A stretch of 64,000 nucleotides of DNA from an uncultured Clostridia bacterium (GCA_944390975.1 CALXRX010000005.1:8182-72181); one strand, 5' to 3'. Positions 1,401 to 61,994 are shown, counted from the first letter of the stretch. The notes: a model not told the origin generated them from the letters alone. Made by a program: numbers and translations.

Positions 1401-1408
1401 GTGATTAA

Positions 1409-1831: not shown

Positions 1832-1842
1832 AGGAGTAAAAT

Positions 1843-2265: not shown

Positions 2266-2351
2266 TAGTAATTTGTGGAAATTCCAAAATAACTATATAA
2301 AAAAGTCTAAATTTAAGATATAATAAAATAGAATAATATACAAAGGAGGAA

Positions 2352-3974: not shown

Positions 3975-3994
3975 TAAATAGGAGGGAAATACAA

Positions 3995-5095: not shown

Positions 5096-5123
5096 AAATG
5101 CTAGAAAGGAAGGAGTAAATTAG

Positions 5124-6476
5124 ATGGCGGTATATAGATATAGAGCTTTAACGCCTAATGGTGTAATTGTTAGTAATCGTATAGATGAAAACAATAGAAG
5201 TGCAGTAATAAAGAAACTAAAAAGAAATAATTTAACACCAATAAGCATTACAGAACAAATAGGATTAGCAAAAAAACCTGCTAAATCTAATAAAAGAAAC
5301 GTAAAAGATATTGAAGATATTATAAAGAATGTAAATACTTCTAATATTGTAACAAATAGGGAGAAAAAAAGAGAATCCTATATACAAAAAATTAATAAAG
5401 CTTTAGCTAAAACAGAAAAAATAACAACAAGAGATATAGTTATATTTACGCAAAATTTCTATTTGTTAAAAAAAGCTAATTTTAACAACATACATGCTTT
5501 AAATACAATTATAGAAAGTACAGAAAACTATATTTTTAGAGGAATATTAGAAGACATATTAGCAGGTGTTGAAGCAGGGGAAAATATGTATACTACTATG
5601 GAATATTATTCTAATGTATTCCCATATATTTATATAAATATGATACGTGTTGGAGAACTATCGGGATCTCTTACAAACTCTTTAAAACAAGCAGTTAAGT
5701 ACCTTGACGATAGTACAAATATTAACAAGAAATTAAAAAATATTTTAATACCAAACCTTGTTCAATTTGCTTTATTATTGGTAATGTTAGTAGTAGGTAC
5801 ACTTGTTGCTGTTCCAGCAATTCAAAATGTATTTGATGCTGTAGGAACAAAAGATACTCTACCAGCTTTAACGCTTTGGTTTAAAGATTTCTTAGATAAA
5901 TTAATTATGTATTGGTATGTTCCAACAGCTATTATAGGTGCAATTGTTGTATTTGTTATAATGTATATTAGAACACCAAAAGGAAAATACAACTTTGACT
6001 ATTTTAAATATACTATGCCAATCTTTGGAAAGCTAATTTTTGCTTTAGATTTTTCAAGATTAATGAAAGCTATGCTTCTTAACTTAAATAATGGAATGAG
6101 AATACAAGAGGCATTAGAAGTAAGTAAAAATATATGTAAAAATTATGTTATGCTTTCAATAATTGAAACTTCAATAAATAACATTTTAATTGGACAATCT
6201 TGGATTGAGCCATTTGAAAGATCTGGATTACCATCTTCAATGATAACAGAAATGTTAAAAATAGGTATGAAAACAGATTTATCTGAAATGATGGAAAAAC
6301 TAGTAGAATATATGGAAATAGATATAAATAACATAATAGATAATATTATGAAAGTATTACCACAAGTAGTATATAGTATAGTTGGTATTGTATTAATATT
6401 CTTCGTACTAATTGTATTAGTTCCTGCATTACAATTATACATGGGTAACTTCTTAATTTCAGCAGCAGGATTTTAA
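5124..6476 (+). CDS. pilC: type IV pilus inner-membrane platform protein PilC (GspF family)
   Basis: 450 aa polytopic protein with two GspF-like repeats. Follows pilB and pilT. Confidence 0.8.
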   Translation: MAVYRYRALTPNGVIVSNRIDENNRSAVIKKLKRNNLTPISITEQIGLAKKPAKSNKRNVKDIEDIIKNVNTSNIVTNREKKRESYIQKINKALAKTEKITTRDIVIFTQNFYLLKKANFNNIHALNTIIESTENYIFRGILEDILAGVEAGENMYTTMEYYSNVFPYIYINMIRVGELSGSLTNSLKQAVKYLDDSTNINKKLKNILIPNLVQFALLLVMLVVGTLVAVPAIQNVFDAVGTKDTLPALTLWFKDFLDKLIMYWYVPTAIIGAIVVFVIMYIRTPKGKYNFDYFKYTMPIFGKLIFALDFSRLMKAMLLNLNNGMRIQEALEVSKNICKNYVMLSIIETSINNILIGQSWIEPFERSGLPSSMITEMLKIGMKTDLSEMMEKLVEYMEIDINNIIDNIMKVLPQVVYSIVGIVLIFFVLIVLVPALQLYMGNFLISAAGF

Positions 6477-6488
6477 ATAAATTAATAA

Positions 6489-6541
6489 AACAAAAAAGTA
6501 TAATTAAGTGGTATAAAACTTTATTATACTTTTTGTTTTTT
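6489..6541 (+). terminator. Rho-independent terminator ending the pilus operon
   Basis: Stem caaaaagtataa / ttatactttttg followed by a T-run. Confidence 0.6.
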
Positions 6542-6574
6542 AAATTAAAATGTCACACATTATGGGGAGGAAAA

Positions 6575-7486
6575 ATGAGAATAGGAATAGATATAGGTGG
6601 AAGTCATATACAAGTTGGTTTAATAGACGAATTTGGGAATATTTTAGCAAAAAAAGAAAAAGACATATTAAAGGAAGATAAATTAGAAATACAAAATAAA
6701 ATTGAAGAAACAATTATTAAAAATATATTAGAAATTATAGAAGAACAAAAAATTAATATTTTAGATGTTAAATTTATAGGGATTGCTTTCCCTGCAAGTT
6801 TTAGAAATGGAGAAATAGGTTTATCAGTAAATTTAGGAGCAAATGGTGAACTATTAAGAAAAAACATTCAAACTCATTTTTCAATACCTGTATATATTAG
6901 AAATGATGCTAAATGTGCAGCAATTTGCGAGAAAAAATATGGCTCACTAAAGTATTATTCTGATTGCATATTCTTAACAATAGGAACAGGAATAGGAGGA
7001 GCAGCTTTTGTAGACAATAAATTGTTTAAATCTCCTAATATGGATAAATTTAAAGTAGGGCATATTACCATACAAAAAGATGGTTTAAAATGTAGGTGTG
7101 GAAAAAAAGGATGCTTTGAAAATTATGCTTCAATTACAGCATTAAAAAGAAATGTAACCAAAGAATTCAATATTGAAAAAGAGATTACAGGTAAAGAACT
7201 ATATGATTTTATAATAAAAAATGAAAATAATGAAAAAATGAATATAATTATAAATAATTATATTGAAAGCTTAAGTGTAGGAATATCAAATTTAATAAAC
7301 TTATTTGAGCCAGATGCTATTAGCATAGGCGGAAGCTTCGTATATTACAAAGATATATTTCTAGAAAGATTAAAATTGAAAATACAACAAAATAATTTGC
7401 TATATAAAGACAACATACCAGAAATACTTTTAGCAAAATTTAAAAATGATGCTGGAATGATAGGTGCATCTCAAATTGAAAACTAA
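6575..7486 (+). CDS. ROK-family sugar kinase (glucokinase-like)
   Basis: N-terminal RIGIDIGG and the ROK zinc motif CRCGKKGCFE. Likely start is the ATG at 6575 after a GGGGAGG RBS; the ORF-track start at 6533 has no RBS. Confidence 0.7.
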   Translation: MRIGIDIGGSHIQVGLIDEFGNILAKKEKDILKEDKLEIQNKIEETIIKNILEIIEEQKINILDVKFIGIAFPASFRNGEIGLSVNLGANGELLRKNIQTHFSIPVYIRNDAKCAAICEKKYGSLKYYSDCIFLTIGTGIGGAAFVDNKLFKSPNMDKFKVGHITIQKDGLKCRCGKKGCFENYASITALKRNVTKEFNIEKEITGKELYDFIIKNENNEKMNIIINNYIESLSVGISNLINLFEPDAISIGGSFVYYKDIFLERLKLKIQQNNLLYKDNIPEILLAKFKNDAGMIGASQIEN

Positions 7487-7490
7487 AATA

Positions 7491-7519
7491 TTGACTTTTT
7501 TTATGTCCTATAGTATAAT
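7491..7519 (+). promoter_or_regulatory. sigma-A-type promoter (TTGACT, 17 nt spacer, TATAAT)
   Basis: Consensus -35 and -10 hexamers with a 17-nt spacer. A terminator lies about 210 nt downstream, before rnj. Confidence 0.5.
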
Positions 7520-7731
7520 AATAAAAGTTGTTACCTAAAAATGGTAAAGATGAGATTTTAATTTTATGTATAAACAAAGAAATGAGATAAATAATATTAA
7601 TGTATTGATTCGGGAAAATGAAAATATAGAAATATACAAAATAATGTATAAAATTATGGATTGTGTACGGGAATTTAATTATATAATTTTATACTAATTA
7701 AAACTATATATAAACGTATTTTCTAAAATCA

Positions 7732-7759
7732 ATCAGTTTATTAATAAACTGGTTTTTTT
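7732..7759 (+). terminator. Rho-independent terminator
   Basis: cagtttattaataaactg hairpin followed by a T-run. Confidence 0.55.
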
Positions 7760-7899
7760 GCTTTTTCTAAATTTAATAAAAATGATATTAGAAAAAGAAA
7801 TTGTCGTATTTTATTAGTAACTTATTATAAAAAATATATTTGTTTTATATAAAAAATTAAATGAAAATAAACGAAATAAAATAAAGGAGAGATGAATTT

Positions 7900-9825
7900 A
7901 TGATGCAAGAAGTAAAAACAGAAGAAAAGAATAATACAGAAAAAACTAGTAGAGAAGCTAAAAGTAGAAATACAAAAAGAAATTATGCAACAAAAGCTAA
8001 CAAAACTAATAAGGAAAAATTAAAAGTGGAAAGCACAAAAAAAATTAATAATGAAAATACAAAAAACAATGAGAAAATTTTTAATGAACTAAATAAAAAA
8101 GTTACTAAAACAAGAAGGCAGTCAGTTAGGAAGGATAATGCCAAAAAAGACAATGAATTTAGATTTAAGAAAAGTCCTTTAAAAATAATTCCATTAGGAG
8201 GATTATTAGAAGTTGGTAAAAATATTACAGTATTTGAATATGAAAATGAAATAATAGTAGTTGATTGTGGGCTAGCATTTCCAGAAGATGACATGCTAGG
8301 CATAGACCTAGTAATTCCAGATGTAACATATCTAGAAAAAAATAAAGATAAAATAAAAGGCCTAGTAGTTACACATGGACATGAAGACCATATTGGCTCT
8401 ATACCATATTTATTAAAACAATTAAATATACCAATTTATGCAACAAGATTAACAATTGGGTTAATTAGCAACAAATTAGAAGAGCATGGATTATTAAGAA
8501 GTACAAAATTAAATATCGTAAAACAAGGTGAAACTATAAACTTTGGAAAAATGCAAGTAGAGTTTATTAGAAGTTGTCATAGTATACCTGATGCTGTAGC
8601 ACTTGCTATACACACACCAATTGGTACAGTAGTACACACAGGAGATTTCAAAATAGATTTCACACCAATTGATGATGAAAGAATGGATTTTGGAAGAATT
8701 GCAGAACTTGGAAATAAAGGTGTTTTAGCACTTATGTCAGATAGTACAAATGCAGAAAGAAAAGGATATACTATGTCTGAAAGTACTGTTGGAGATGTAT
8801 TTGAAAAACTATTTTTACATTGCACCAAAAGAATTGTAGTAGCAACATTTGCTTCAAATGTTCATAGAGTTCAGCAAATAGTAAATTCTAGCGTTAAATA
8901 TGGAAGAAAAATAGCTGTTTGTGGTAGAAGTATGATTAATATGATACAAACAGCAATAGAACTTGGGTATATTAAAGTACCAAATAATGTATTTATAGAC
9001 ATAGATATGATAAATAATTATCCAGATGAAAATTTAGTTATTATTACAACAGGATCACAAGGAGAAACGATGTCAGCACTTACAAGAATGGCAGCAGGAG
9101 AACATAGAAAAGTTACAATAACACCTAATGATTTAGTAATAATTTCAGCAAATCCTATACCAGGAAATGAAAAATTTGTATCAAAAGTAATAGATGATTT
9201 AATGAAAATTGGTGCAGAAGTAGTATATAGTGCATTAGAAGATGTTCATGTATCAGGACATGCATGTCAAGAAGAACAAAAATTAATGTTAGCATTAGTA
9301 AAACCAAAATATTTTATACCAGTTCATGGAGAGTATAGACAATTAGTTGCACATATGGATACAGCAAAGAAAATGGGAATAGATTCAAAAGACATATTTA
9401 TAATGACAAATGGAAGAATTCTAGAGTTAAATGAAAATGAAGCAAAACTTACAGGAACAGTTCCATCAGGAAAGATTTTAGTAGACGGTTTAGGTGTTGG
9501 AGATGTTGGAAATATAGTATTAAGGGATAGACAACATTTATCACAAGATGGTCTAATAGTAATAGTGTTAACAATGGATTCTTCAACAGGAGAAGTAGTA
9601 TCAGGACCAGATGTTATATCAAGAGGATTTGTATATGTGCGTGAATCTGAAAACTTAATGGAAGATGTAAAAAAAGTTATTAGAGAAGAAATTGAAAAAT
9701 GTGAGCAAAAACATATAAAAGAATGGTCAATTATAAAATCTAATCTAAAGGATGAATTAAGAGACTATATTTATCAAAGAACAAAAAGAAACCCAATGAT
9801 TTTACCAATTATAATGGAAGTATAG
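7900..9825 (+). CDS. rnj: ribonuclease J (beta-CASP metallo-beta-lactamase RNase) with ~90-aa Lys-rich N-terminal extension
   Basis: HGHEDHIG metallo-beta-lactamase motif, beta-CASP region and RNase J C-terminal domain. GGAGAG RBS upstream. Confidence 0.85.
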   Translation: MMQEVKTEEKNNTEKTSREAKSRNTKRNYATKANKTNKEKLKVESTKKINNENTKNNEKIFNELNKKVTKTRRQSVRKDNAKKDNEFRFKKSPLKIIPLGGLLEVGKNITVFEYENEIIVVDCGLAFPEDDMLGIDLVIPDVTYLEKNKDKIKGLVVTHGHEDHIGSIPYLLKQLNIPIYATRLTIGLISNKLEEHGLLRSTKLNIVKQGETINFGKMQVEFIRSCHSIPDAVALAIHTPIGTVVHTGDFKIDFTPIDDERMDFGRIAELGNKGVLALMSDSTNAERKGYTMSESTVGDVFEKLFLHCTKRIVVATFASNVHRVQQIVNSSVKYGRKIAVCGRSMINMIQTAIELGYIKVPNNVFIDIDMINNYPDENLVIITTGSQGETMSALTRMAAGEHRKVTITPNDLVIISANPIPGNEKFVSKVIDDLMKIGAEVVYSALEDVHVSGHACQEEQKLMLALVKPKYFIPVHGEYRQLVAHMDTAKKMGIDSKDIFIMTNGRILELNENEAKLTGTVPSGKILVDGLGVGDVGNIVLRDRQHLSQDGLIVIVLTMDSSTGEVVSGPDVISRGFVYVRESENLMEDVKKVIREEIEKCEQKHIKEWSIIKSNLKDELRDYIYQRTKRNPMILPIIMEV

Positions 9826-22516: not shown

Positions 22517-22575
22517 GGTGAGACAAGGTTAGGCATCTTTTCGTGTTAACGTTTAGTCTATTTTACTTTTTAATA

Positions 22576-32836: not shown

Positions 32837-34429
32837 ATGCTAAAACAAGAAAAGGGTTCAATAACATTGTTTGTTTTAATTGCTATGCTATTTTTTACAA
32901 TATTCTTAATTGGAATGTATATATTAAGTACAAATAGTGAAAGTATCCAAATAGAAGAAATGGCAAAAATAAAAGAGATATATGAAGAAGGAGCTAATAA
33001 TGTAGATGATGTATATGCTACAGTAGAGAATAAAGAAATAAAAGAAATAGCACTAGATGGAAGTTGGAGTAGTGCAAATAAAGTAAACAAGCCAAATTTA
33101 GAAAATACAGGATTACAACCAATAGTAATAAATAGTAATGGAACAACATCTACACCAGATACAACAAAAGAAAACTGGTACAGTTATGATGGAGTAGAAA
33201 ATAAATGGGCAAATGCACAAACAGCAGATGGAAGCATGTGGGTATGGATACCAAGATACGCATACAAAATAACATATAATGATGCAAGTGATAAATCACA
33301 AGGAGGAACAATAGATGTAGTATTCTTGCAAGGAACAAGTAACTTAGATAAAAATGGAAAAGATGTAACTCAAGAAAATTATGTAGATGAAAAAGGGAAC
33401 ACAGGAGCATATATAGTACATCCAGCATTCGAAGATGGAAGTAGCAATGGATACCCAAATGGAGAATGGAATAAAAAGATAGAAGGAATATGGGTAGCAA
33501 AATTTGAAGCAGGATATCAAGATGCAGATAAAGCAGTAAACTCAAATGTAGGATATAGTGTAACAGATGGTTATGATGGAACTACAGCAGGAGATATAAA
33601 AAATAATTACTATGAAGAAATACAACAAGGAACAAAAATAAAATTTCCAACATTTATAGCAAACAAACCAAGTATAAATTATATTGGGGTAAATGACAGC
33701 TATGATTTATGTAAGGATTTAACAAGTACAAATGCCCCATACAAATTAAATGGAAATAAAGTAGATAGTCATTTAACAAAAAATAGTGAATGGGGAGCAG
33801 TAGCATATTTAACACACAGTAAATATGGAAGAAACGGACAAGAAGTAACAATAAATAATGTATCTGTAAATGGAGAAAATACAGTATATGCAGTAACAGG
33901 GTATGCAGGAGAAAGTGTTAGTGCAAATCCAGTAACAACGAATTTGACAGCTATAAAAAATAACGAAGTAGCAGGAAGTTGGACAACTGAACAAGGACAA
34001 AAAGCAAGTAGTACAGGAAACATATATGGAATATATGACTTAAGTGGAGGACTATGGGAATGGACAGCAGGATATATAGCGCCAGAAACAGGAAACTATC
34101 AAACATATGGAGGAAGCTTAAAAGGAGAAAGTAATCAGTATAAAAGTAAATATGCAGGTGTATCTGACAAAGATTTAGACAATTACAATGAAACAGCAAA
34201 TGCTAGTAGAGTTGGAGAAGCTATATGGGAAACTTCAGCAAGTGGAACATATCCAGGGAAAAGTGCATGGAATAGCGATTACTCATATTTTGTTTCTCTT
34301 TCAGGAGTATTTACTGAACGTGGAGGTGGATGGGGTAGTACAACTATTGCCGGTGTTTTTGCATTCACTCGCAATGAGGGTTTTGGTAATTATAATGTCG
34401 GTTTCCGTCCAGTGTTAATAGTTGAGTAG
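32837..34429 (+). CDS. paralog 1: pilin-like N-terminal anchor plus FGE-sulfatase (C-type-lectin fold) domain protein with hypervariable C-terminus
   Basis: N-terminus MLKQEKG-SITLFVLIAMLFF. SUMF1/FGE-family motifs HLTKNSEWGAVAYL, NIYGIYDLSGGLWEWTAGY, RGGGW and GFRPVLIV. The last ~120 nt are A-poor and GC-rich. Confidence 0.7.
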   Translation: MLKQEKGSITLFVLIAMLFFTIFLIGMYILSTNSESIQIEEMAKIKEIYEEGANNVDDVYATVENKEIKEIALDGSWSSANKVNKPNLENTGLQPIVINSNGTTSTPDTTKENWYSYDGVENKWANAQTADGSMWVWIPRYAYKITYNDASDKSQGGTIDVVFLQGTSNLDKNGKDVTQENYVDEKGNTGAYIVHPAFEDGSSNGYPNGEWNKKIEGIWVAKFEAGYQDADKAVNSNVGYSVTDGYDGTTAGDIKNNYYEEIQQGTKIKFPTFIANKPSINYIGVNDSYDLCKDLTSTNAPYKLNGNKVDSHLTKNSEWGAVAYLTHSKYGRNGQEVTINNVSVNGENTVYAVTGYAGESVSANPVTTNLTAIKNNEVAGSWTTEQGQKASSTGNIYGIYDLSGGLWEWTAGYIAPETGNYQTYGGSLKGESNQYKSKYAGVSDKDLDNYNETANASRVGEAIWETSASGTYPGKSAWNSDYSYFVSLSGVFTERGGGWGSTTIAGVFAFTRNEGFGNYNVGFRPVLIVE

Positions 34430-34455
34430 CACTTCAAAAATATATAGATTATATT

Positions 34456-34509
34456 AAAACTAGTAAAAAAGTCTCAGATTAAAATCAGACTTTTTGTACT
34501 AGTTTTTTC
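34456..34509 (+). terminator. long-stem Rho-independent terminator (3' flank type a)
   Basis: aaaactagtaaaaaagtctcagatt pairs with aatcagactttttgtactagtttt, followed by a T-run. The same flank follows paralog 3. Confidence 0.6.
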
Positions 34510-34870
34510 TATGGAAAAAATAAATAAAAAGCTTGACAAAGTAATATAAGTAAATATAAAATTGTATCATAAAACGGGAAAAAGAGTTTAACAGAATTTA
34601 AACTTAAATTTATCAAAAAACTTGTTCAAGCTAATTTACAAAGATATTCTAAAATAATTTTATGGCACCCTTCCATTTAAAATGAACACTTTCCATAAAA
34701 TTATTTAAGAATATCTAAAGCAAATTACTTTCAATGCGTTTTTTTCAAATTTGAAGTTTTAAATTCTGTTAAATAAAATTTCTAGTAGGCAAGCAAATGA
34801 AGCTAAAATGTATAAAAAAAAGTTAAAAGTAAAAAATAAAATCACAAAAGAGAATGAGGAGGAAAGGTCA

Positions 34871-35909
34871 AGTGATAAGGAAAAAGGAGAAAAGCAGTAA
34901 AAATAATTTAAAATCAAAAAACGAGATAGGAATCACATTAATAGCTTTAATAATAACAATAATCATCTTGTTAATACTTGCAGGAGTGACAATAAACTTA
35001 ACATTAGGAGAAAATGGGATATTTAGAACAGCAGAGATGGCAGGAAAGAACTATATGGAGGCACAAGAAAGAGAGTTAGCAGGACTAGCAGACTTTGAAA
35101 AAGCAATAAATAATATAATAGGAGGAACAGGAAGTAGCAGTGACACAGATACACCTGTTATAAATTATGACACATTAAAAAGTGTAGCAGATCCAGGAGA
35201 TTATGTAAAATATGATACAGGGATAACATCAGTTGGAAATAATGGAATAGTAACATTTAGGGTATTGTATAATGATGATACATATGGATTGCAAATAATA
35301 TCAGATAAAAATCTAGAGGAAATAAATTTTGGAATAACTAAATCTAATGATTTGGCCACATGGGAATTAGTAATGAATGATTATAACAATGCAATAACTA
35401 CATTAAATGAAAAAGCGGAGTATTATATAACAAATAGTCCATATGCACTAGATGGAAGATGTGTGGGAAGTGTAGCAACAATAGGAGCAGATGGAAAATT
35501 TAATGAAAAGAATACAGAAGTAGAAGGAACATATAATATACCAGATTCATGGACATTACCAAGTGGATGGAGTAGTAGAGATACAGGATGTAAAAAAGTG
35601 ACTGATGAAAATTATATAACAGACCAAATGACTATGGAAGCATTAGGACTATGGAGAACAGATGAAAACTATTGGCTAGCATCCCACCATGTAAATTTGG
35701 ATACAGACGATTTGACTTTTTTTGTGAATGGTGTTGATAGCAGTGGGAACGTTTTCTTAGCTCACATGTGTGGTGCCTATCCAAGTGGTAGCACAGTTAC
35801 TGGCTCTTATAAATTTGGGCTTCGTCCTTGTATATCTTTAAAATTTGATGTCAAGGTAATAGCAGGAGATGGAAAAACAGAAGCTACTGCATATGAGTTA
35901 GGAATATAA
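34871..35909 (+). CDS. pilin-like N-terminus protein with globular C-terminal domain (putative modular minor pilin)
   Basis: Likely GTG start at 34871 after a GAGGAGG RBS; the ORF-track ATG is 34854. EIG-ITLIALIITIIILLILAGVTINLTLGENGIF is near-identical to the pilin of 262..489. The C-terminus ...GSYKFGLRPCISL is NNY-codon rich. Confidence 0.5.
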
Positions 35910-35917
35910 GGCTTGAT

Positions 35918-36085
35918 ACTCTAAAATATATATTTCTCAAATTTTTATACAAAAACCTTGGTGTCGCAACCTACAAAGTAAGAAAACAAGACGTAGGTTG
36001 CTCCAAGTCGCACTCGCTTCAAAAGAAGCGAGTTTGGTCGCTTACGCGGTTTTTATAAAAATTTTCTAAATATATATTTTAGAGT
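35918..36085. other. about 168-bp element: ~38-bp AT-rich inverted-repeat arms enclosing a 90-nt GC-rich multi-hairpin core
   Basis: Arms are actctaaaatatatattt...aaaaacc and ggttttt...aaatatatattttagagt. The core has hairpins gcaacctac/gtaggttgc and actcgcttc/gaagcgagt, and a thrice-repeated gtcgc. Confidence 0.5.
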
Positions 36086-36123
36086 GAGGGGAGTAAAAAG
36101 AGTATGTAAAATCTTTAAAAAGC

Positions 36124-36175
36124 TAGTCAAAAGTTTTGTAAGTAAAAGCAGAGTAAACTTGACTAGTTTTTTTGC
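36124..36175 (+). terminator. Rho-independent terminator
   Basis: gctagtcaaaagtt...aaacttgactagt hairpin followed by T7. Confidence 0.55.
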
Positions 36176-36276
36176 GTTATTAGATTATCTATGAAGTAAT
36201 TTATAGGAGTATACGTTGTTTAAGAAAAAAGCAAAATATTATGCAAACAAATGATAAATAAAAAGTAGAAAATTAC

Positions 36277-36305
36277 TTGAAAGAGAGATAAAAAAGAGAT
36301 ATATA
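36277..36305 (+). promoter_or_regulatory. putative sigma-A promoter (TTGAAA, 17 nt spacer, TATATA) in the conserved ~150-bp module upstream of paralogs 2, 3 and 4
   Basis: The same module is present upstream of the ATGs at 39095 and 43021. Confidence 0.4.
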
Positions 36306-36350
36306 AGTACTTGAAAATGAAAATTAATATAATAAAATACGGAGGAAAAA

Positions 36351-37955
36351 ATGTTAAAACAAGAGAGAGGCTCAATAACATTGTTTGTATTAATAGCAAT
36401 GCTATTTTTTACAATATATCTAATTGGAATGTATATATTAAGCACAAATAGTGAAAGTAGCCAAATAGAAGAAATGGCAAAAATAAAAGAAATCTATGAA
36501 GAAGGAGTAAACAATATAGATGATGTATATACTACATTAGAAAAAAGAGAAATGGAAAATAATGAGAAAGATATTGCACTAGATGGAAGTTGGAGTAGCA
36601 CAAATAAAGTAAACAAGCCAAATTTAGAAAATACAGGATTACAAGCAATAGTAATAAATGCTGATGGAACAACATCTACACCAGATAGTAAAAAAGAAAA
36701 TTGGTACAGTTATGATGGAGTAGAAAATAAGTGGGCAAACGCACAAACAGTAGATGGAAGTATGTGGGTATGGATACCAAGATATGCATATAAAATAACA
36801 TACAATGATGGAAGTGATAAATCACAAGGAGGAACAATAGATGTAGTCTTTTTGCAAGGAACAAGTAACTTAGATAAAGATGGAAAAGATGTAACCCAAG
36901 CAAGTTATTTAGATGAAAAAGGACAAACAGGAGCATATATAGTACATCCTGCATTTGAAGATGGAAGTAGCACAGGGTATGCAAATGGTGAGTGGAGAAA
37001 AAAGATAGAAGGAATATGGGTAGCAAAATTTGAAGCAGGATATCAAGATGCAGATAAAGCAGTAAATTCTAATGTGGGATACACTACTATATATAGTTAT
37101 GAAATAGATGGAACAGAAGCAGATAGAACAACATATTATTATGGAGAAAGGGTAGTAGGAACAAAGATAAAATATCCAACATTTACAGCAAATAAACCAA
37201 GTATAAGCTATATAGGAATAAGTGATAGTTATGATTTATGTAGAGATTTAACAAGTATGAATGCTCCATATAAATTAAATGGAAACAAAGTAGATAGTCA
37301 CTTAACAAAAAATAGTGAATGGGGAGCAGTAGCATATTTAACACACAGTAAATATGGAAGAGGAGGACAAGAAGTAACAATCAATAATATAACAGTAAAT
37401 GGAGAAAATACAGCATATGCGGTAACAGGATATGCAGGAGAAAGCGTTAGTGCAAGCCAACTAGTAACAAATTTAACAGCAATAAATAATAATCAAGTAG
37501 AAGGAAGTTGGACAACTGCACAAGGACAAAAAGCAAGTACTACAGGAAATATATATGGAATATATGATTTAAGCGGAGGACTATGGGAATTCACAGCAGG
37601 ATATATAGCACCAGAAACAGGGAACTATCAAACATATGGAGGAAGTCTAAAAGGAGAAAGTAACGAATACAAAAGTAAATATGCTGGGGTATCAGAAACA
37701 GCTGAAACAAACTACAACGAAATAGTCAATAAAGGAAGAATTGGAGAGGCAATATGGGAGACATCAGATAGTGGAAGCACTGTTAATGGTGCATGGAATA
37801 GCGACTATAGTGCTTTTGTACGTTCTATAGCACCATTTACAGTCCGTGGAAGTAATTGGAGTTTCGATTCTAAAGCCGGACTCTTTGCGTTCGACCGTAC
37901 TTATGGTTTTTGCCGTTTCCAGGTTGGTTTCCGTCCAGTGCTTATAATTGAGTAG
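36351..37955 (+). CDS. paralog 2: pilin-like N-terminus plus FGE-sulfatase/CLec-fold protein with hypervariable C-terminus
   Basis: About 85% identical to paralog 1 over the first ~480 aa. The first ~45 codons are identical. C-terminus ...VRGSNWSFDSKAGLFAFDRTYGFCRFQVGFRPVLIIE. Confidence 0.7.
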   Translation: MLKQERGSITLFVLIAMLFFTIYLIGMYILSTNSESSQIEEMAKIKEIYEEGVNNIDDVYTTLEKREMENNEKDIALDGSWSSTNKVNKPNLENTGLQAIVINADGTTSTPDSKKENWYSYDGVENKWANAQTVDGSMWVWIPRYAYKITYNDGSDKSQGGTIDVVFLQGTSNLDKDGKDVTQASYLDEKGQTGAYIVHPAFEDGSSTGYANGEWRKKIEGIWVAKFEAGYQDADKAVNSNVGYTTIYSYEIDGTEADRTTYYYGERVVGTKIKYPTFTANKPSISYIGISDSYDLCRDLTSMNAPYKLNGNKVDSHLTKNSEWGAVAYLTHSKYGRGGQEVTINNITVNGENTAYAVTGYAGESVSASQLVTNLTAINNNQVEGSWTTAQGQKASTTGNIYGIYDLSGGLWEFTAGYIAPETGNYQTYGGSLKGESNEYKSKYAGVSETAETNYNEIVNKGRIGEAIWETSDSGSTVNGAWNSDYSAFVRSIAPFTVRGSNWSFDSKAGLFAFDRTYGFCRFQVGFRPVLIIE

Positions 37956-37969
37956 AGAAATTTTATATA

Positions 37970-38008
37970 AATGGTAATATTGAGAAGAAGTGATATTACC
38001 ATTTTTTG
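37970..38008 (+). terminator. Rho-independent terminator (3' flank type b)
   Basis: aatggtaatat / atattaccatt stem followed by T6. The same flank follows paralog 4. Confidence 0.6.
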
Positions 38009-38159
38009 GTAAAATAAATTCATAATAGTGTAGTTTGGCAATGTTGACTTCACTTTACACTTCAATATTATATAGGAATAATAATTAATATATAAATAAT
38101 ATAAAATGAATATATCTCAATATATTAGATATATTATTTATAATAAATGTTTTATAGTG

Positions 38160-38188
38160 TTGACGTACGTATAAGCGTATGCTATAAT
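38160..38188 (+). promoter_or_regulatory. promoter of the toxin-antitoxin operon (TTGACG, 17 nt spacer, TATAAT) with cgtata direct repeats in the spacer
   Basis: Consensus hexamers. The repeats cgtata and gcgtat lie inside the spacer and are a likely antitoxin operator. Confidence 0.5.
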
Positions 38189-38210
38189 ATATAGAAGGAG
38201 TGAATAAGAA

Positions 38211-38459
38211 ATGACTAATACTAATATAACTAATTTTAGAAAGAATATATATAACCTATTAGAAAAGACAATCAAATACAATGAGCCAATTAATATTTCA
38301 ACGAAAAATGGCAATGCTGTTATTATATCCGAAGAAGATTATAACAGCATAATAGAAACATTGTATATATGCTCAATACCTAAATTAAAAGAAGATATAC
38401 AAAAAGGATTAAAGGAAAATATTGAGAACTGTGTACCAGAAGATGAGGTGGAATGGTAA
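38211..38459 (+). CDS. yefM: Phd/YefM-family antitoxin
   Basis: 82 aa, with the FRKNIYNLLEK...PINISTKNGNAVIISEEDYNSIIETLY pattern of YefM. Confidence 0.75.
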   Translation: MTNTNITNFRKNIYNLLEKTIKYNEPINISTKNGNAVIISEEDYNSIIETLYICSIPKLKEDIQKGLKENIENCVPEDEVEW

Positions 38460-38462
38460 ACA

Positions 38463-38729
38463 ATGTATAATATAGTATATATAAAACAAGTAATAAAAGA
38501 TATACCAAAACTAAAAGCTATTGGATTAAGTAATAAAGCTAAAAATTTAATAGATATTATAAAGTCAAATCCGTATCAAAATCCACCACCTTATGAAAAA
38601 CTTATTGGAGATTTACAAGGTGCATATTCAAGAAGAATTAACATACAGCATAGATTAGTGTATCAAGTTTTAGAAGAAAAAAAAACAATAAAAATATTAA
38701 GTATATGGTCACATTATGAAAATGTATAA
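38463..38729 (+). CDS. yoeB: YoeB/Txe-family toxin (ribosome-dependent mRNA interferase)
   Basis: 88 aa. Begins 4 nt after the yefM stop. Conserved ...RRINIQHRLVYQV...IKILSIWSHYE. Confidence 0.75.
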   Translation: MYNIVYIKQVIKDIPKLKAIGLSNKAKNLIDIIKSNPYQNPPPYEKLIGDLQGAYSRRINIQHRLVYQVLEEKKTIKILSIWSHYENV

Positions 38730-39094
38730 AGATAAATATACTTTTATTGTTTATCATAATATAAAATTATAGAAAAAATGAAAAGTTAATGGACAACCAA
38801 TAGTTACAAATATAAAAGAGTTAAAAAAGTTTGTGCAATATAAGGAATTAGAACAAACAAAAATGGCTATTGGAAGATATAATAGATGTTACAATAAACT
38901 TTGCGATAAAAAAGCGTTGAATTTAGAAATAAGTTCAAAGCTTTTTTATATTCTAAATTTGATTTTTAAATAAGAGATAATATTATGCAAACAAGTGATA
39001 AATAAAAATTAGAAAATTACTTGAAAGAGAGAGAAAAAAGAGATATATAAGTACTTGAAAATAAAAATTAATATAACAAAGTACGGAGGAAAAA

Positions 39095-40696
39095 ATGTTA
39101 AAACAAGAGAAAGGATCAATAACATTGTTTGTATTAATAGCAATGCTATTTTTTACAATATATTTAATAGGAATGTATATATTAAGCACAAATAGTGAAA
39201 GTAGCCAAATAGAAGAAATGGCAAAAATAAAAGAAATCTATGAAGAAGGAGTAAACAATATAGAAGATATATATGCCACATTAGAAAAAAGAGAAATGGA
39301 AAATAATGAAAAAGAAATAGCACTAGATGGAAGTTGGAGTAGCACAAATAAAGTAAACAAGCCAAATTTAGAAAACACAGGATTGCAACCAGTTATAATA
39401 AATGCAGATGGGACAACTGCTAAACCAGATAGTAAAACAGAAAATTGGTATAGCTATGATGGAGTAGAAAATAAGTGGGCAAACGCACAAACAGCAGATG
39501 GAAGTATATGGGTGTGGATACCAAGATACGCATATAAAATAACATACAACGACTCAAGTGATAAATCACAAGGAGGAACAATAGACGTAGTATTTTTACA
39601 AGGAACAACTAACTTAGATAAAAATGGAAAAGATGTAACACAAGCAAGTTATGTAGATGAAAAAGGAGTAACAGGAGCATATATAGTACACCCAGCATTT
39701 GAAGATGGAAGCAGCACAGGGTATGCAAATGGAGAGTGGAGAAAAAAGATAGAAGGAATATGGGTAGCAAAATTTGAGGCAGGATACCAAGATGTAGATA
39801 AAGCAGTAGATTCAAATGTGGGATATAGTACAATATATAGTTGGGAAATAAACAAAACATCAGCAGATAGAACAACATACTATTATGGAAAAAGAACAGT
39901 AGGAACAAAAATAAAATATCCAACATTTACAGCAAACAAACCAAGTATAAATTATATAGGAATAAGCGATAGTTATGATTTATGTATGGATTTAACAAGT
40001 ACAAATGCCCCATATGGATTAAATGCAGCCAAAGTAGATAGTCATTTAACAAAAAATAGTGAATGGGGAGCAGTAGCATATTTAACACACAGTAAATATG
40101 GAAGAAACGGAAAGGAAATAACAATAAACAATATAACAGTAGATGGAGACAGTACAGCTTATGCAGTAACAGGATATGGAGGAGAAAGTGTTAGTGCAAG
40201 CCAACTAGTAACAAATTTAACAGCAATAAATAATAACCAAGTAGCAGGAAGTTGGACAAGTTCACAGGGACAAAAAGCAAGCAGTACAGGAAATGTATAT
40301 GGAATATATGACTTGAGCGGAGGATTATGGGAATTCACAGCAGGATATATAGTACTAGATTCAGGCAACTATCAAACATATGGAGGAAGTCTAAAAGGAG
40401 AAAGTAATCAATATAAAAGTAAATATGTAGGTATAGCTGAAACATATGAAATAAATTATTCTAATGAAGGAAATGTAAATAGAAAAGGAGAGGCAATATG
40501 GGAGACATCAGATAGTGGTGAGGGAACAACTTCATGGAATAACGACCACTCCTTTTTTGTGTATTCTTCGGAACCTTTCCTTGCTCGTGGAGGTAGATGG
40601 AGTTACACGTCTGATGCTGGTGTGTTTGGATTCAGTTGCAGTTACGGTTACGGCAATTGCAGTATTGGTTTCCGTTCAGTGCTTATAGTTGAGTAG
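39095..40696 (+). CDS. paralog 3: pilin-like N-terminus plus FGE-sulfatase/CLec-fold protein with hypervariable C-terminus
   Basis: Same architecture as paralogs 1 and 2. C-terminus ...ARGGRWSYTSDAGVFGFSCSYGYGNCSIGFRSVLIVE. Confidence 0.7.
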   Translation: MLKQEKGSITLFVLIAMLFFTIYLIGMYILSTNSESSQIEEMAKIKEIYEEGVNNIEDIYATLEKREMENNEKEIALDGSWSSTNKVNKPNLENTGLQPVIINADGTTAKPDSKTENWYSYDGVENKWANAQTADGSIWVWIPRYAYKITYNDSSDKSQGGTIDVVFLQGTTNLDKNGKDVTQASYVDEKGVTGAYIVHPAFEDGSSTGYANGEWRKKIEGIWVAKFEAGYQDVDKAVDSNVGYSTIYSWEINKTSADRTTYYYGKRTVGTKIKYPTFTANKPSINYIGISDSYDLCMDLTSTNAPYGLNAAKVDSHLTKNSEWGAVAYLTHSKYGRNGKEITINNITVDGDSTAYAVTGYGGESVSASQLVTNLTAINNNQVAGSWTSSQGQKASSTGNVYGIYDLSGGLWEFTAGYIVLDSGNYQTYGGSLKGESNQYKSKYVGIAETYEINYSNEGNVNRKGEAIWETSDSGEGTTSWNNDHSFFVYSSEPFLARGGRWSYTSDAGVFGFSCSYGYGNCSIGFRSVLIVE

Positions 40697-40725
40697 AAGT
40701 TTAAAAAATATGTAGATTGTATAAT

Positions 40726-40778
40726 AAAACTAGTAAAAAAGTTTCAAAGTTAAATCAGACTTTTGTACTAGTTTTTTC
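40726..40778 (+). terminator. Rho-independent terminator (3' flank type a, copy 2)
   Basis: Near-identical to the element at 34456..34509. Confidence 0.55.
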
Positions 40779-40925
40779 TGTGGTAAAAATAAATAAAATA
40801 CTTGACAAGTAATATAAGTAAATATAAAATTGTATCATAAAATGGAAAGAGGTTGTTTAACAGAATTTAAACTTAAATTTATAAAAAAGTAATTCAATCT
40901 AATTTATTAAAATATTAAAAAAGCA

Positions 40926-40965
40926 AAGGAATAACATTAATAGTTCTAATAATAACAATATTGTT
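40926..40965 (+). pseudogene. remnant of a second copy of the 34871..35909 pilin-like gene (about 230-bp deletion removed RBS, start and leader)
   Basis: 40780-40925 matches 34510-34650. Then ggaataacattaatagttctaataataacaatat matches codons ~20-32 of the intact gene. It diverges afterwards. Confidence 0.45.
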
Positions 40966-41288
40966 CTCTTATACGAAATGATAAAATTCAGCAATAACAA
41001 AGGTTTCCTCCTACAAACAATTTAGTAATTTATAAATTTTCACATATTTAGAAGATGAATTGTAATAAATAAATACAAGTTCATCTTTTTTGAATTTATA
41101 AAAATAGTTAAAAATGAAAAATTGATAGATATAAAATTCAAAGGTAACAAATTCGATACCTTTGGAATGTAAAAATGTCTTTTTTTAGATTTTTAATGAA
41201 AAAAATAAAAACAGATGATATAATGTCAATTAATAGAAAAGATGAATTGTGCAGACGGCATTTGCACAATTAGAAAGAAGGTACATAT

Positions 41289-42179
41289 ATGAGTATGGAT
41301 ATGATAAAAACAGAGATATATGTTGAAAAAAATAAAGTCAGTGTAATTAGAATAAATAATAAGGAATACATATCATTAACAGATTTAGCAAGATATGCAA
41401 ATCCAGAAGAACCCAAAATACCAGTACAAGCTTGGATGAGAAATAAAGATGTAATTTCATATTTGGGATTATGGGAAAAGCTTAATAATGAAAATTTCAA
41501 AGGTCACGAATTCGAGACCTTTGAGAATGAAGCAGGTAAACATAGCTTTTATATGTCACCGCAAAAATGGATAAAGGAAACAAATGCTATTGGTATTATA
41601 TCAAAGTCTGGAAACAATGGAGGGACATTTGCACATAGTGATATAGCATTTGAATTTGCAAGTTGGTTATCTCCAGAATTTAAGTTATATTTAATTCAAG
41701 AATTTGAAAGGCTAAAAAAGAATGAATCATATCAATATAAAATTGAATGGCAAGCTAATAGAGTATTATCAAAGGTAAATTATTTAGTACATACTGATGC
41801 CGTAAAAATGAACATAGTTCCAGTTTTAACAGAAGAACAAAAGAGATATGTTTATGCTGAAGAAGCAGATGTATTGAATGTTGCATTATTTGGAATGACA
41901 GCTAAACAGTGGAGAACACAAAATCCAGATTTAGTAGAAAAAGGTAATATGAGAGACTATACTGGTTTACTTCATTTGGTTATTTTGAGTAATTTAGAGA
42001 ATACAAATGCAGAATTAATAAATGCAGGAGTACCACAAAGTGAAAGATTAATAAAATTAAATGATTCAGCAAGAAGGCAAATGAGAGTATTAGAAAACAA
42101 CAAAGGAATAAAAGAATTAGAAAATTTACAAGATGAAATAAATGAAATCAATATTTTGAAGATAAAAGATAAAAATTAG
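41289..42179 (+). CDS. KilA-N domain protein (phage/plasmid-associated DNA-binding domain)
   Basis: 296 aa. The N-terminal 110 aa carry a KilA-N/APSES-like pattern (ISLTDLARYAN...WMRNKDVISYLGLWE). The C-terminus is coiled-coil. Confidence 0.55.
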   Translation: MSMDMIKTEIYVEKNKVSVIRINNKEYISLTDLARYANPEEPKIPVQAWMRNKDVISYLGLWEKLNNENFKGHEFETFENEAGKHSFYMSPQKWIKETNAIGIISKSGNNGGTFAHSDIAFEFASWLSPEFKLYLIQEFERLKKNESYQYKIEWQANRVLSKVNYLVHTDAVKMNIVPVLTEEQKRYVYAEEADVLNVALFGMTAKQWRTQNPDLVEKGNMRDYTGLLHLVILSNLENTNAELINAGVPQSERLIKLNDSARRQMRVLENNKGIKELENLQDEINEINILKIKDKN

Positions 42180-42625
42180 AACTTTTGAATCGTCCAGACG
42201 TCTGAACAATTTAAAAATGAAAATCGTTTTAGATTAAATTTCTAAAGCGATTTTTATGGAAATTTTTTATCTACATTTTGAAGATATAAAGTTATATAAA
42301 AAACAAATAAAAATGGCTAGAAATTAAAAATAAGTCGAATAAAGAGAATAATGAAAACAAAGAATAGCAAAATTATATGCAAATGAAATACTCTAAGATA
42401 AGACACATGATTTGCATATAAGAAACCAGCTACTAGAGTAGATAAACTACTTGGGTAGCTGATTTTTTAGTTAAAGTTGAGAATAGCAATTTTAACTAAA
42501 ACATAAAAAATATAAAAATATTTTTTATGCAAAGGGGTGTGGGGAAAAATAAATTTTTCCCTGCCACATTAACACTTTTTAGTGATAGCGTTAAAAAGTG
42601 TTGTAGTGTGTTTACTGCACATTTG

Positions 42626-42871
42626 GAATGGACAGCAGGATATATAGAACTAGAAACAGGGAATTATCAAACATATGGAGGAAATCTAAAAAGGGAAAGT
42701 AACGAATACAAAAGTAAATATGCAGGTGTATCAGATAAAGATATAGACAATTACAACGAAATAGCAAATACAACTAGAAAAGGAGATGCGATATGGGAGA
42801 CTTCAAATAGCGGAAGTGGAAGTAATTCATGGAATGGAGGATACTCATGTTTCATGCATACTACTTGTTAA
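42626..42871 (+). pseudogene. internal fragment (~82 codons) of an FGE-domain paralog, truncated at both ends
   Basis: Homology begins at gaatggacagcaggatatata (EWTAGYI...) and ends inside the variable C-terminal region. The 3' end is fused directly to the conserved upstream module of paralog 4. Confidence 0.6.
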
Positions 42872-43020
42872 AAATTTTCAAGGTAAAACTTAAGAAAAAA
42901 GCAAAATATTATGCAAACAAGTGATAAATAAAAAACAACAAATTACTTGAAAGAGAAATAAAAAAGAGATATATAAGTACTTGAAAATAAAAATTAATAT
43001 AACAAAGTACGGAGGAAAAA

Positions 43021-44628
43021 ATGTTAAAACAAGAGAAAGGATCAATAACATTGTTTGTATTAATAGCAATGCTATTTTTTACAATATATCTAATAGGAAT
43101 GTATATATTAAGTACGAATAGCGAAAGTAGTCAAATAGAAGAAATGGCAAAAATAAAAGAAATATATGAAGAAGGAGTAAACAATATAGAAGATGTATAT
43201 GCCACATTAGAAAAAAGAGAAATAGAAAATAATGAAAAAGAAATAGCACTAGATGGAAGTTGGAGTAGCACAAATAAAGTAAATAAACCAAATTTAGAAA
43301 ATACAGGATTACAAGCAATAGTAATAAATGCTGATGGAACAACATCTACACCAGATAGTAAAAAAGAAAATTGGTATAGCTATGACGGAGTAGAAAATAA
43401 ATGGGCAAATGCCAAAACAGCAGATGGAAGCATGTGGGTATGGATACCAAGATATGCCTATAAAATAACATATAATGATGCAAGTGATAAATCACAAGGA
43501 GGAACAATAGATGTAGTATTCTTGCAAGGAACAAGTAATTTAGATAAAGATGGAAAAGATGTAACCCAAGAAAATTATATAGATGAAAAGGGAGCAACAG
43601 GAGCATATATAGTGCATCCAGCATTTGAAGATGGAAGTAGTACAGGATACCCAAATGGAGAATGGAGAAAAAAGATAGAAGGAATATGGGTAGCAAAATT
43701 TGAAGCAGGATACCAAGATGTAGATAAAGCAGTAGACTCAAATATAGGATATAGTACAATATATAGTTGGGAAATATCAGGAACGCCAACAGCAGATAGA
43801 ACAACATACTATTATGGAGAAAGAGAAATAGGAACAAAAATAAAATACCCAACATTTGTAGCAAACAAACCAAGTATAAATTATATTGGGGCAAGTGATA
43901 GTTATGACTTATGTAAGGATTTAACAAGCACAAATGCACCATATGGATTAAATGCAAACAAAGTAGATAGCCATTTAACAAAAAATAGTGAATGGGGAGC
44001 AGTAGCGTACCTAGCACATAGTAAATATGGAAGAAATGGACAAGAAGTAACAATAAACAATATAAATGTTAATGGCGACACTACAGCATATGCAGTAACA
44101 GGATATGGAGGAGAAAGTGCTAGTGTTGGAGGGGTAATAACAAATTTAACAGCAATAAAAAATAACCAAGTAGAAGGAAGTTGGACAACATCACAAGGGC
44201 AGAAAGCAAGTACTACAGGAAACATATATGGAATATATGACTTAAGTGGAGGACTGTGGGAATGGACAGCAGGATATATAGCACCAGAAACAGGAAACTA
44301 TCAAACCTATGGAGGAAGCTTAAAAGGAGAAAGTAATCAGTATAAAAGTAAATATGCAGGAGTATCTGCAACAGATGAAACAAATTACAAGGAAACTGCC
44401 AATATAAATAGAATTGGAGAAGCAATATGGGAAACATCAACAAGTGGAGCATGGCCAAGTACAACTGCATGGAATAGCGACTATACCTGTTTTGTAAGTA
44501 CAAGTCCATTCATTGTTCGTGGTGGAACTAGAATCGACAATTATGCTGCTGGTATGTTTTCGTTCGCTCGTGGTACCGGTTACAACGTTTTCGATGTTGG
44601 TTTCCGTTCAGTGCTTATAGTTGAATAG
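43021..44628 (+). CDS. paralog 4: pilin-like N-terminus plus FGE-sulfatase/CLec-fold protein with hypervariable C-terminus
   Basis: Same architecture. C-terminus ...VRGGTRIDNYAAGMFSFARGTGYNVFDVGFRSVLIVE. Confidence 0.7.
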   Translation: MLKQEKGSITLFVLIAMLFFTIYLIGMYILSTNSESSQIEEMAKIKEIYEEGVNNIEDVYATLEKREIENNEKEIALDGSWSSTNKVNKPNLENTGLQAIVINADGTTSTPDSKKENWYSYDGVENKWANAKTADGSMWVWIPRYAYKITYNDASDKSQGGTIDVVFLQGTSNLDKDGKDVTQENYIDEKGATGAYIVHPAFEDGSSTGYPNGEWRKKIEGIWVAKFEAGYQDVDKAVDSNIGYSTIYSWEISGTPTADRTTYYYGEREIGTKIKYPTFVANKPSINYIGASDSYDLCKDLTSTNAPYGLNANKVDSHLTKNSEWGAVAYLAHSKYGRNGQEVTINNINVNGDTTAYAVTGYGGESASVGGVITNLTAIKNNQVEGSWTTSQGQKASTTGNIYGIYDLSGGLWEWTAGYIAPETGNYQTYGGSLKGESNQYKSKYAGVSATDETNYKETANINRIGEAIWETSTSGAWPSTTAWNSDYTCFVSTSPFIVRGGTRIDNYAAGMFSFARGTGYNVFDVGFRSVLIVE

Positions 44629-44642
44629 AGAAATTTTATATA

Positions 44643-44680
44643 AATGGTAATATTGGGAAGAACTGGTATTACCATTTTTT
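44643..44680 (+). terminator. Rho-independent terminator (3' flank type b, copy 2)
   Basis: aatggtaatat / tattaccatt stem followed by T6. Confidence 0.6.
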
Positions 44681-44914
44681 ATGTAAGAAAATAAATATTG
44701 TATAATTTGAAATAGTAGTAGCATAATAATATTACGAAAAAGTTACGTTTACGGAAAAAATTCGTAATAAAATTAAATTTTGAGAGAAAAGAAATTATTT
44801 TAAATAAATTAATATGCATGTAAAAATACAACTTTTATAAAACATTCAAAACAATTAGATAATAAATAAAATCAAGAACAAATTTGTTCTTGATTTTATT
44901 TACTCAGTAAATTT

Positions 44915-51935: not shown

Positions 51936-52085
51936 ATTGATAGATAATAGTATATAAATATTGAAGAACGATGAGGAGCCATAAGTGGGGACCAATAGAA
52001 ACTGTTAAAATGTGCAAACATTTTATACAGTTTCATTGGGGAATGGCGACTGTTCAAAATATTTATATACTATTATCTATCAATT
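51936..52085. repeat. MITE-like palindromic element, copy C (opposite orientation, perfect 27-bp terminal repeats attgatagataatagtatataaatatt, ~45-bp internal insertion)
   Basis: Shares terminal repeats and core with copies A, B, D and E. It additionally contains the palindrome aaactgttaaaatgtgcaaacattttatacagttt. Confidence 0.7.
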
Positions 52086-52227
52086 TTAAAAAAGTAAAAT
52101 AGTATAAACATTAACAAAAAGTTATGCAAATACATGTTAAAGTCTTGATTTTTATTGATTTTTATGTTAAGATAGATATGTATACAAATAAAGAGAGGTG
52201 AAACCTAAATAAATTTTAGGAATTAGT

Positions 52228-60237: not shown

Positions 60238-60330
60238 AAGTTAATTGTATATAAATATTGAAGAACGATGAGGAGCCATAAGTGGGAATGGCGGCTGTTC
60301 AAAATATTTATATACTATTATCTATTGATT
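60238..60330. repeat. MITE-like palindromic element, copy D (opposite orientation)
   Basis: ttgtatataaatattgaagaacgatgaggagccataagtgggaatggcggctgttcaaaatatttatatac. Confidence 0.7.
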
Positions 60331-60366
60331 TAAAAAAGTAAAATAGACTAAACAATAACAACATAT

Positions 60367-61855: not shown

Positions 61856-61994
61856 TTTAAATTGCACCTCCTATAAAGTTAATAAATTGTCTACTAAATA
61901 GTTTAACACAGTATTAAAAAAAAAACAATAGTTTATTGGAAATTTTTATTTATTATGGTAAAATAAAGTTACTGTTCAACCTATAAATAGTTAA

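Follow-up and report, generated by a model that had tools for sequence, protein, structure and literature searches.

The window analyzed here, a 64,000-nucleotide stretch of Firmicute chromosome (~26% GC) from an uncultured Clostridia bacterium, carries four paralogous genes between ftsZ and spoIIGA, and we conclude that the hypervariable 3′ ends of these genes are, by origin, very probably variable regions of the diversity-generating retroelement (DGR) class. In the source species these segments are probably orphan and currently static. Since the window holds no DGR machinery and all sampled strains carry the segments unchanged, they are most likely leftovers of past hypermutation. In a DGR a reverse transcriptase (RT), together with the accessory protein Avd, copies the RNA of a template repeat into cDNA and misreads its adenines; this cDNA then replaces the C-terminal variable region of a binding protein with the C-type-lectin (CLec)/formylglycine-generating enzyme (FGE) fold. 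AAY codons of the template can become any NNY codon, and the scaffold codons, which are adenine-free in the template, stay fixed. The genes and segments in question, located by open reading frame (ORF) list and alignment, are as follows.

32837-34429, + strand: paralog 1, 530 amino acids, with a hydrophobic pilin-like N-terminal helix and a predicted FGE-sulfatase/C-type-lectin-fold ectodomain
34270-34429, + strand: variable region 1, A-poor, with a scaffold of A-free codons
36351-37955, + strand: paralog 2, 534 amino acids, identical to database protein P0121
37795-37955, + strand: variable region 2, A-poor
39095-40696, + strand: paralog 3, 533 amino acids
40540-40696, + strand: variable region 3, A-poor
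43021-44628, + strand: paralog 4, 535 amino acids, the input sequence for the structure model
44470-44628, + strand: variable region 4, A-poor

In their last 120 nt the paralogs are 17-22% A and 42-47% GC; the remainder of the genes is 46% A and 32% GC. The A-poor, GC-rich 3′ ends described in an earlier note on this DNA are therefore real. When the + strand of the whole 64 kb is ranked in 120-nt intervals, the five lowest in A are the four paralog 3′ ends and a segment at about 35670-35834. For seven amino acids (Gly, Arg, Leu, Val, Ala, Pro, Ser) we set the codons used in the final 45 positions of each gene against those used before them. Adenine-free synonymous codons account for 70/102 (69%) in the last 45 codons and 85/769 (11%) elsewhere (Fisher p = 4e-35), and arginine is written CGN in 13 of 15 cases there versus none of 26 elsewhere. 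Because the contrast persists among synonymous codons, amino-acid composition does not explain the depletion of A.

Pairwise DNA identity among the paralogs falls from 85-89% in the body of the genes to 57-69% in the 3′ ends; the earlier note was right that the bodies are highly similar, although its range of ~85-100% was too wide. Likewise, NNY codons are enriched at the variable codons (72%, 89/124, vs 33% elsewhere), if not to the point of being almost all of them, as had been claimed. The scaffold R-G..W......AG.F.F....G......GFR.VLI.E is present in all four paralogs, except that the W described as invariant is R in paralog 4, and the sequence GGTTTCCGTYCAGTG, which nearly matches the 3′ end of the variable region and template repeat of a DGR described below, is invariant in every copy. 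Across 76 homologs, Lys, Glu, Gln and Met together make up 2.4% of residues at the variable columns vs 17.7% elsewhere, and Cys makes up 3.7% vs 0.3%. As judged from these alignments, the family has at its variable columns the NNY repertoire that AAY codons in a template would be expected to give.

A complete DGR adjoins a homolog of the window paralogs. This homolog, P0156 (~43% identity), is encoded on ENA contig ERZ27293935 k119_172621 (locus L016), and 208 nt downstream of its gene lies a template repeat of 166 nt (7190-7355) that differs from the variable region by 22 mismatches, 19 of them at template adenines. On the opposite strand are an RVT_1 reverse transcriptase, an Avd gene (bAvd; its NCBIfam DGR Avd score of 93 bits exceeds the cut-off of 80) and a gene with a MutS_I domain, a layout that resembles Architecture D of Wu et al. 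(PMC5758913). With 80 more loci, homologous RTs were found beside family genes in L042, L069, L060, L100 and L027, and adenine-biased repeat pairs in five more relatives (L069, L027, L042, L025 and L011); there was no RT near L001-L007, L011, L012, L013-L015, L017-L024 or L105. The columns that vary in the window segments fall at adenines of the L016 template (22/27 vs 36/81, p = 8e-4). The segments are thus DGR variable regions of the FGE/CLec1 class, known as category b and accounting for 19% of DGRs (PMC5758913).

It could be argued that no retroelement was ever involved, and that diversifying selection on a lectin site acted together with a preponderance of residues (G, F, R, V, Y, C and W) that use A-poor codons. 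The scaffold residues are indeed intrinsically A-poor in their coding, and the window holds neither an RT nor a template repeat. The synonymous-codon test, however, removes the amino-acid effect and leaves the contrast standing, the homolog in L016 is a verified DGR target, and the variable columns fall on the adenines of a real template. This explanation is already contradicted by these results and we regard it as highly improbable.

The fold of the proteins agrees with the class assignment. An AlphaFold model (AF2) of paralog 4 built with 72 homologs reached a pLDDT of 91, and its best PDB matches by Foldseek were TaqVP (5vf4, E 1.7e-8), then Mtd, formylglycine-generating enzymes and TvpA (2y3c). 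TaqVP, a Thermus DGR variable protein (PMC6328139), was also matched by the sequence profile of the family (E 0.0066), and Pfam FGE-sulfatase matches of the paralogs were weak, at E 7e-4 to 2e-3 (0.002 for paralog 1), below the family cut-off. The predicted structure is therefore a C-type-lectin/FGE fold with the variable segment at its C-terminus. Fold, homology to the L016 target and coincidence of columns with adenines together support the earlier identification of DGR-type variable regions in a CLec/FGE-fold target.

The portion of the genome examined for RT, Avd and template repeat is the 64 kb of the window. No ORF in it combines the YxDD and SQxxxN motifs, tblastn with the L016 DGR RT and with the L016 Avd gave no match, and neither RVT_1 nor bAvd appeared in the Pfam results for 20 window ORFs. 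A template repeat was not found in the 64 kb by an adenine-tolerant sliding scan, which gave only A-rich stretches of low identity, by low-stringency blastn pair detection in the window, or by local alignment of each segment against the downstream 1-2 kb; the same repeat pipeline recovered the pairs in L016, L069, L027, L042, L025 and L011. All of these searches bear out the earlier statement that RT, Avd and template repeat are absent from the window.

Contigs of other strains show the segments to be unchanged. In L008, which comes from another metagenome and covers 21.6 kb of the island between ftsZ and spoIIGA, there are 11 single-nucleotide polymorphisms (SNPs), none in a variable region, and all four segments are identical to those of the window; two variable regions are covered in L009 and one in L010, and these too are identical. 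The 90% clusters of the paralogs contain one sequence each or differ in the N-terminal part only. The same species carries at least three more family paralogs (L017-L019, L023 and L024, from the same samples as the window's strain) at dispersed sites, namely between groEL and mutL, upstream of spoIIAA/sigF and upstream of recA. These have A-poor 3′ ends as well, their proteins are identical in 2-5 samples, and no template repeat or RT was found near any of the three. As called, some of the dispersed paralogs have N-termini that look truncated or frameshifted.

The differences among the four segments also argue against ongoing templated mutagenesis from one source. Of the 108 core columns 58 are variable, 22 of them at third codon positions, and some are C/T synonymous sites (GCC/GCT, CGC/CGT); by codon position the variability is 0.65 at third positions against 0.59 and 0.47 at first and second positions. 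With third positions as variable as the first and second, one template cannot have been the recent source of all four segments. To account for 58 variable columns, a template common to all four would have to contain roughly double the adenines of a real one (L016 has 28), and at each homing it would have homogenized the third-position and C/T synonymous differences. The earlier expectation that variable positions map to template adenines is borne out with respect to the L016 template, whereas there are too many differences of non-adenine type for one template to have produced all four segments. The earlier note had also held that identical C-termini in related strains, together with a genome free of any RT or template repeat, would speak against its interpretation; identical they are in L008, L009 and L010, which counts in part against it, and the class assignment is nonetheless still supported. 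Given the identical C-termini and the excess of non-adenine-type differences, we favor a diversifier that is lost or inactive over one that is active elsewhere, two possibilities which had been left side by side.

The second of these possibilities, a remote DGR whose RT, Avd and template repeat or repeats lie elsewhere in the genome and rewrite the segments in trans, as in Treponema denticola, whose single DGR acts on tvpA and on several distant genes besides, bears closely on whether the segments are static. Several of the observations that weigh against a static array come from the window itself. The scaffold is intact and GGTTTCCGTYCAGTG is conserved, and the adenine-free codon bias, 69-72% in the window segments and 81% in loci with a DGR in cis, is only slightly eroded; C-ending codons such as TTC, and also CGT, are retained in all paralogs despite a genome of 26% GC. 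So strong a bias and the retention of these codons argue for activity in the recent past or for nucleotide-level selection. The strains sampled, moreover, are nearly clonal (0.05% divergence), which means that little time has passed between them, and metagenome consensus contigs hide minority variants. Remote targets are documented: for 10 DGRs a target lies over 100 kb away, and as many as seven non-adjacent targets are known (PMC5758913).

A further observation of the same tendency comes from a second family, represented in the window by one gene.

34854-35909, + strand: gene of a second family with a pilin-like N-terminus, unrelated to the paralogs, with its own A-poor segment resembling a variable region at 35670-35834 (YWLAS...GLRPCI)

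Adenine-free synonymous codons number 19 of 27 in this segment and about 15% elsewhere. The allele of the window has lost scaffold residues that are otherwise conserved, and it is found unchanged in another strain. In a related species, 11 metagenomes yield 8 distinct variable regions for a 90% cluster of the second family, and of its 40 variable columns 28 fall within the segment; on contig L105, the one looked at, the 10 kb downstream contain neither an RT nor a template repeat. Hypervariation of the second family with no cis DGR in view implies that trans-acting DGRs probably exist in this group.

Against a remote DGR acting on the window paralogs at present stand the identity of all covered variable regions across the sampled contigs, the unchanged dispersed paralogs and the 58 differing columns, whose third-position and synonymous differences one template would erase. 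In addition, variable codons such as AAA, GAG, CAG, ATG and AGA cannot be derived from AAY templates. Two IUPAC scaffold patterns for a template had 0 matches in IMG/VR and 0 in a metagenome collection, a weak result since the species is absent from both. We therefore consider an active remote DGR unlikely. Its broader form is less likely again, namely one or more remote active DGRs serving at least eight targets in two unrelated pilin-like families (the four tandem paralogs, the three dispersed ones and the gene at 34854-35909).

Comparison of L016 with strains that lack the DGR cassette indicates how such 3′ ends may be acquired. The cassette-free strains L013-L015 have one fixed variable region (P0144, 57 collection blocks), which departs from the L016 template at 16 adenines and also at 12 sites that are not adenines. 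The first 1,361 nt of the gene are identical between L016 and these strains and the last 365 nt differ as a block, replaced together with the cassette, from which we conclude that DGR cassettes move with the 3′ module. In this one species, L016 at 5296-9482 has the cassette (template repeat, RT, Avd, MutS_I) and L013-L015 have HTH and ORF6N genes. At another locus (L011, 3230-6458) a target gene is accompanied by an adenine-biased template repeat at 5088-5247 and by no RT, an ISL3-family transposase gene occupying the expected place of the RT; by its gene content this looks like a DGR caught in decay.

Block replacement of this kind, as seen between L016 and L013, raises the question of whether cassette-type recombination suffices, with 3′ ends kept or exchanged as blocks among paralogs or strains, no retroelement in the lineage and a DGR-like composition that was imported. 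The raised divergence among the window paralogs, synonymous sites included, begins about 95 codons before the gene end and is thus longer than a template-sized segment. The paralogs are also mosaic, their downstream flanks pairing 1 with 3 and 2 with 4 and their GFRP/GFRS codons pairing 1 with 2 and 3 with 4, and gene conversion between paralogs is seen directly: strains differ by 7 clustered SNPs, part of the 11 in L008, at 36521-36575 in the N-terminal part of paralog 2 (window vs L008/L009), and since the alternative allele is identical to paralog 3, conversion there was recent. Recombination of blocks, however, explains the movement of the ends and not the adenine-specific depletion or the NNY repertoire, for which a DGR origin is still needed, and no exchange of variable regions was seen among the sampled strains. 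As a sufficient explanation it is improbable; it is less a competitor of the best explanation than a complement to it.

The gene array itself is best read as the product of duplication and gene conversion. In the window a type IV pilus block is followed by dnaG, rpoD, cell-division genes up to ftsA/ftsZ (30052-32453), a 13-kb island and then spoIIGA/sigE/sigG from 46076. The island contains the four paralogs, the second-family pilin-like gene and the following elements.

38211-38729, + strand: YefM/YoeB toxin-antitoxin pair between paralogs 2 and 3 (Pfam), island cargo outside any DGR
41289-42179, + strand: KilA-N domain gene between paralog 3 and the remnant (Pfam), island cargo
42620-42871, + strand, inside ORF 42527-42871: truncated paralog remnant, in which paralog homology ends ~27 nt into the variable region, leaving the remnant without the variable segment proper

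Between ftsZ and spoIIGA a related species, whose protein is 75% identical, carries just one copy, so the four-paralog array is a lineage-specific expansion. The remnant ORF directly adjoins the upstream repeat unit of paralog 4, and the point at which its homology ends places a deletion breakpoint inside the variable region, near its 5′ end. We rejected this remnant (42527-42871) as a candidate template repeat, the fragment having no adenine-rich version of the variable region.

A history compatible with the orphan, static state of the segments would run as follows. The footprint may have been laid down in an ancestor, or brought in with DGR-linked 3′ modules by recombination, and the DGR machinery would subsequently have been lost from these loci. 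The genes would then have multiplied within the ftsZ-spoIIGA gap, with gene conversion homogenizing the 5′ 1.3 kb and the divergent 3′ ends persisting under ordinary mutation only. The outcome would be four fixed binding-site variants, a small standing repertoire in place of hypermutation on demand.

Each paralog is followed by a hairpin.

34456-34506, + strand: hairpin and T-run 27 nt past the stop of paralog 1, terminator-like, homologous to the one at 40726-40775
37960-38015, + strand: hairpin and T-run 5 nt past the stop of paralog 2, homologous to the one at 44634-44688
40726-40775, + strand: hairpin and T-run 30 nt past the stop of paralog 3, folding no better than shuffles (z -0.9)
44634-44688, + strand: hairpin and T-run 6 nt past the stop of paralog 4, passing the terminator scan

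Lying 5-30 nt past the stops, and not within 15 nt of every variable region as first described, and each being followed by a T-run, these hairpins look like ordinary intrinsic terminators. The data did not separate a role as DGR target elements from that of plain terminators, given the T-runs and the one fold at shuffle level.

The paralog family is large, with 7,744 matches, mostly in ENA metagenome assemblies; named relatives come from metagenome-assembled genomes of gut Clostridia, and relatives in the GTDB species set are 43-58% identical. The N-terminus reads MLKQEKG directly followed by SITLFVLIAMLFF, with no Glu at +5, and the model has a long, low-confidence helix at residues 8-50. A class III signal has Gly at -1, a hydrophobic alpha-1 helix and usually Glu at +5, and depends on a prepilin peptidase. 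The family profile matched the geopilin 9egp weakly at the N-terminus (E 0.045) and there was no pilin match in Pfam or NCBIfam. Genes for prepilin peptidase, PilB, PilT and PilC are present in the window at 588-6476. From the pilin-like helix and these type IV pilus genes we infer that the paralog proteins are probably surface or pilus-associated ligand binders. By full-text search we found no paper on orphan variable regions, and no paper that connects DGRs with pilin-like targets in Clostridia.

The type IV pilus block comprises a pilin-like ORF near 275, prepilin peptidase (588-1400), PilB (2352-3974), PilT (3995-5095) and PilC (5124-6476). A 611-amino-acid DUF285/PARCEL-repeat surface protein at 23709-25544 has the same GITLIALVITI-type N-terminus, and the pilin-like leader is common to several surface proteins of the source organism. 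A phage origin of the paralogs was considered and rejected, tblastn against 50,697 phage records having found no homolog of the family and the window being chromosomal.

Two palindromic elements were noted along the way. An intergenic repeat of about 100 nt occurs at 22575-22672 and 61993-62092 and in part at 32640-32720, 51936-52115 and 60284-60337, one partial copy standing just upstream of paralog 1; it has a ~27-bp AT-rich stem around a GC-rich core (GAACAGTCGCCAT...ATGGCTCC.CATCGTTC; fold z -8 to -9) and is possibly of the miniature inverted-repeat transposable element (MITE) or repetitive extragenic palindromic (REP) kind. The other, a 170-nt element at 35917-36086 immediately downstream of the second-family gene, has AT-rich outer arms and two GC-rich inner hairpins (-65 kcal/mol, z -9). 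A search of the whole window against Rfam was negative both at gathering score and at E ≤ 1.

Surveys of DGRs start from the RT and so miss variable regions whose retroelement has been lost or lies far away. The footprint alone, meaning adenine-specific depletion, adenine-free scaffold codons and an NNY repertoire, can identify such regions. Within this one family we see a series of states: complete DGRs (L016, L042, L069), a template repeat without an RT (L011), cassette-free strains with one frozen variant (L013-L015) and the four-copy frozen array of the window. This series makes the gain and loss of DGRs and the exchange of 3′ modules in gut Clostridia testable, and it suggests that duplicated frozen variants can stand in for hypermutation on demand. 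The pilin-like N-termini hint at lectin-fold binders displayed on type IV pilus components, or anchored like them, which would parallel the pilus adhesin targets lately reported from Bacteroides. Should one or more remote DGRs prove to be active on at least eight targets in both pilin-like families, DGR-diversified type IV pilus-associated adhesins would characterize gut Clostridia, and the number of remote targets would exceed that of any DGR yet described.

Among the closest known systems is the TvpA DGR of T. denticola (category b/CLec1; Wu et al., 2018, PMC5758913), which shares with the window a C-terminal variable region in an FGE-sulfatase-like C-type-lectin fold ending in ...GFRxV and several targets per genome, some far from the RT; TvpA (2y3c) is also among the fold matches. 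Unlike TvpA, the window shows no RT, accessory gene or template repeat, its segments are static between strains and inconsistent with one template, and its proteins have a pilin-like N-terminal helix and an extra region of ~300 amino acids. The DGRs of the window family, furthermore, have MutS-like and Avd accessories (Architecture D-like) and not HRDC. The best structural and sequence-profile match, Thermus aquaticus TaqVP (5vf4, PMC6328139), is likewise a DGR variable protein with the CLec fold, although identity is ~15% and the TM-score 0.3-0.45, and TaqVP adjoins its DGR. With the prototype DGR of Bordetella phage BPP-1 (Mtd/Brt/Avd) the window has in common the adenine-specific footprint, the C-terminal CLec variable region, the GC-richer invariant 3′ end and a downstream hairpin, but the window is chromosomal, has no machinery in cis, and its hairpins look like plain terminators. 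The L016 DGR shares with the window a homologous target, a variable-region length of 50 codons, the scaffold and the GG(G/T)TTCCGTYCAGTG 3′ end, and has in addition the template repeat, RT, Avd and MutS_I genes that the window lacks. Finally, DGRs of Bacteroides have type V pilus adhesins as targets for diversification (bioRxiv 10.1101/2024.11.15.621889); they, too, are from gut bacteria and tie DGR-type variable proteins to pilus-like surface structures. That case concerns another phylum and another pilus type, and in the window the link to a pilus consists of the pilin-like helix and the nearby PilB, PilT, PilC and prepilin peptidase genes only.

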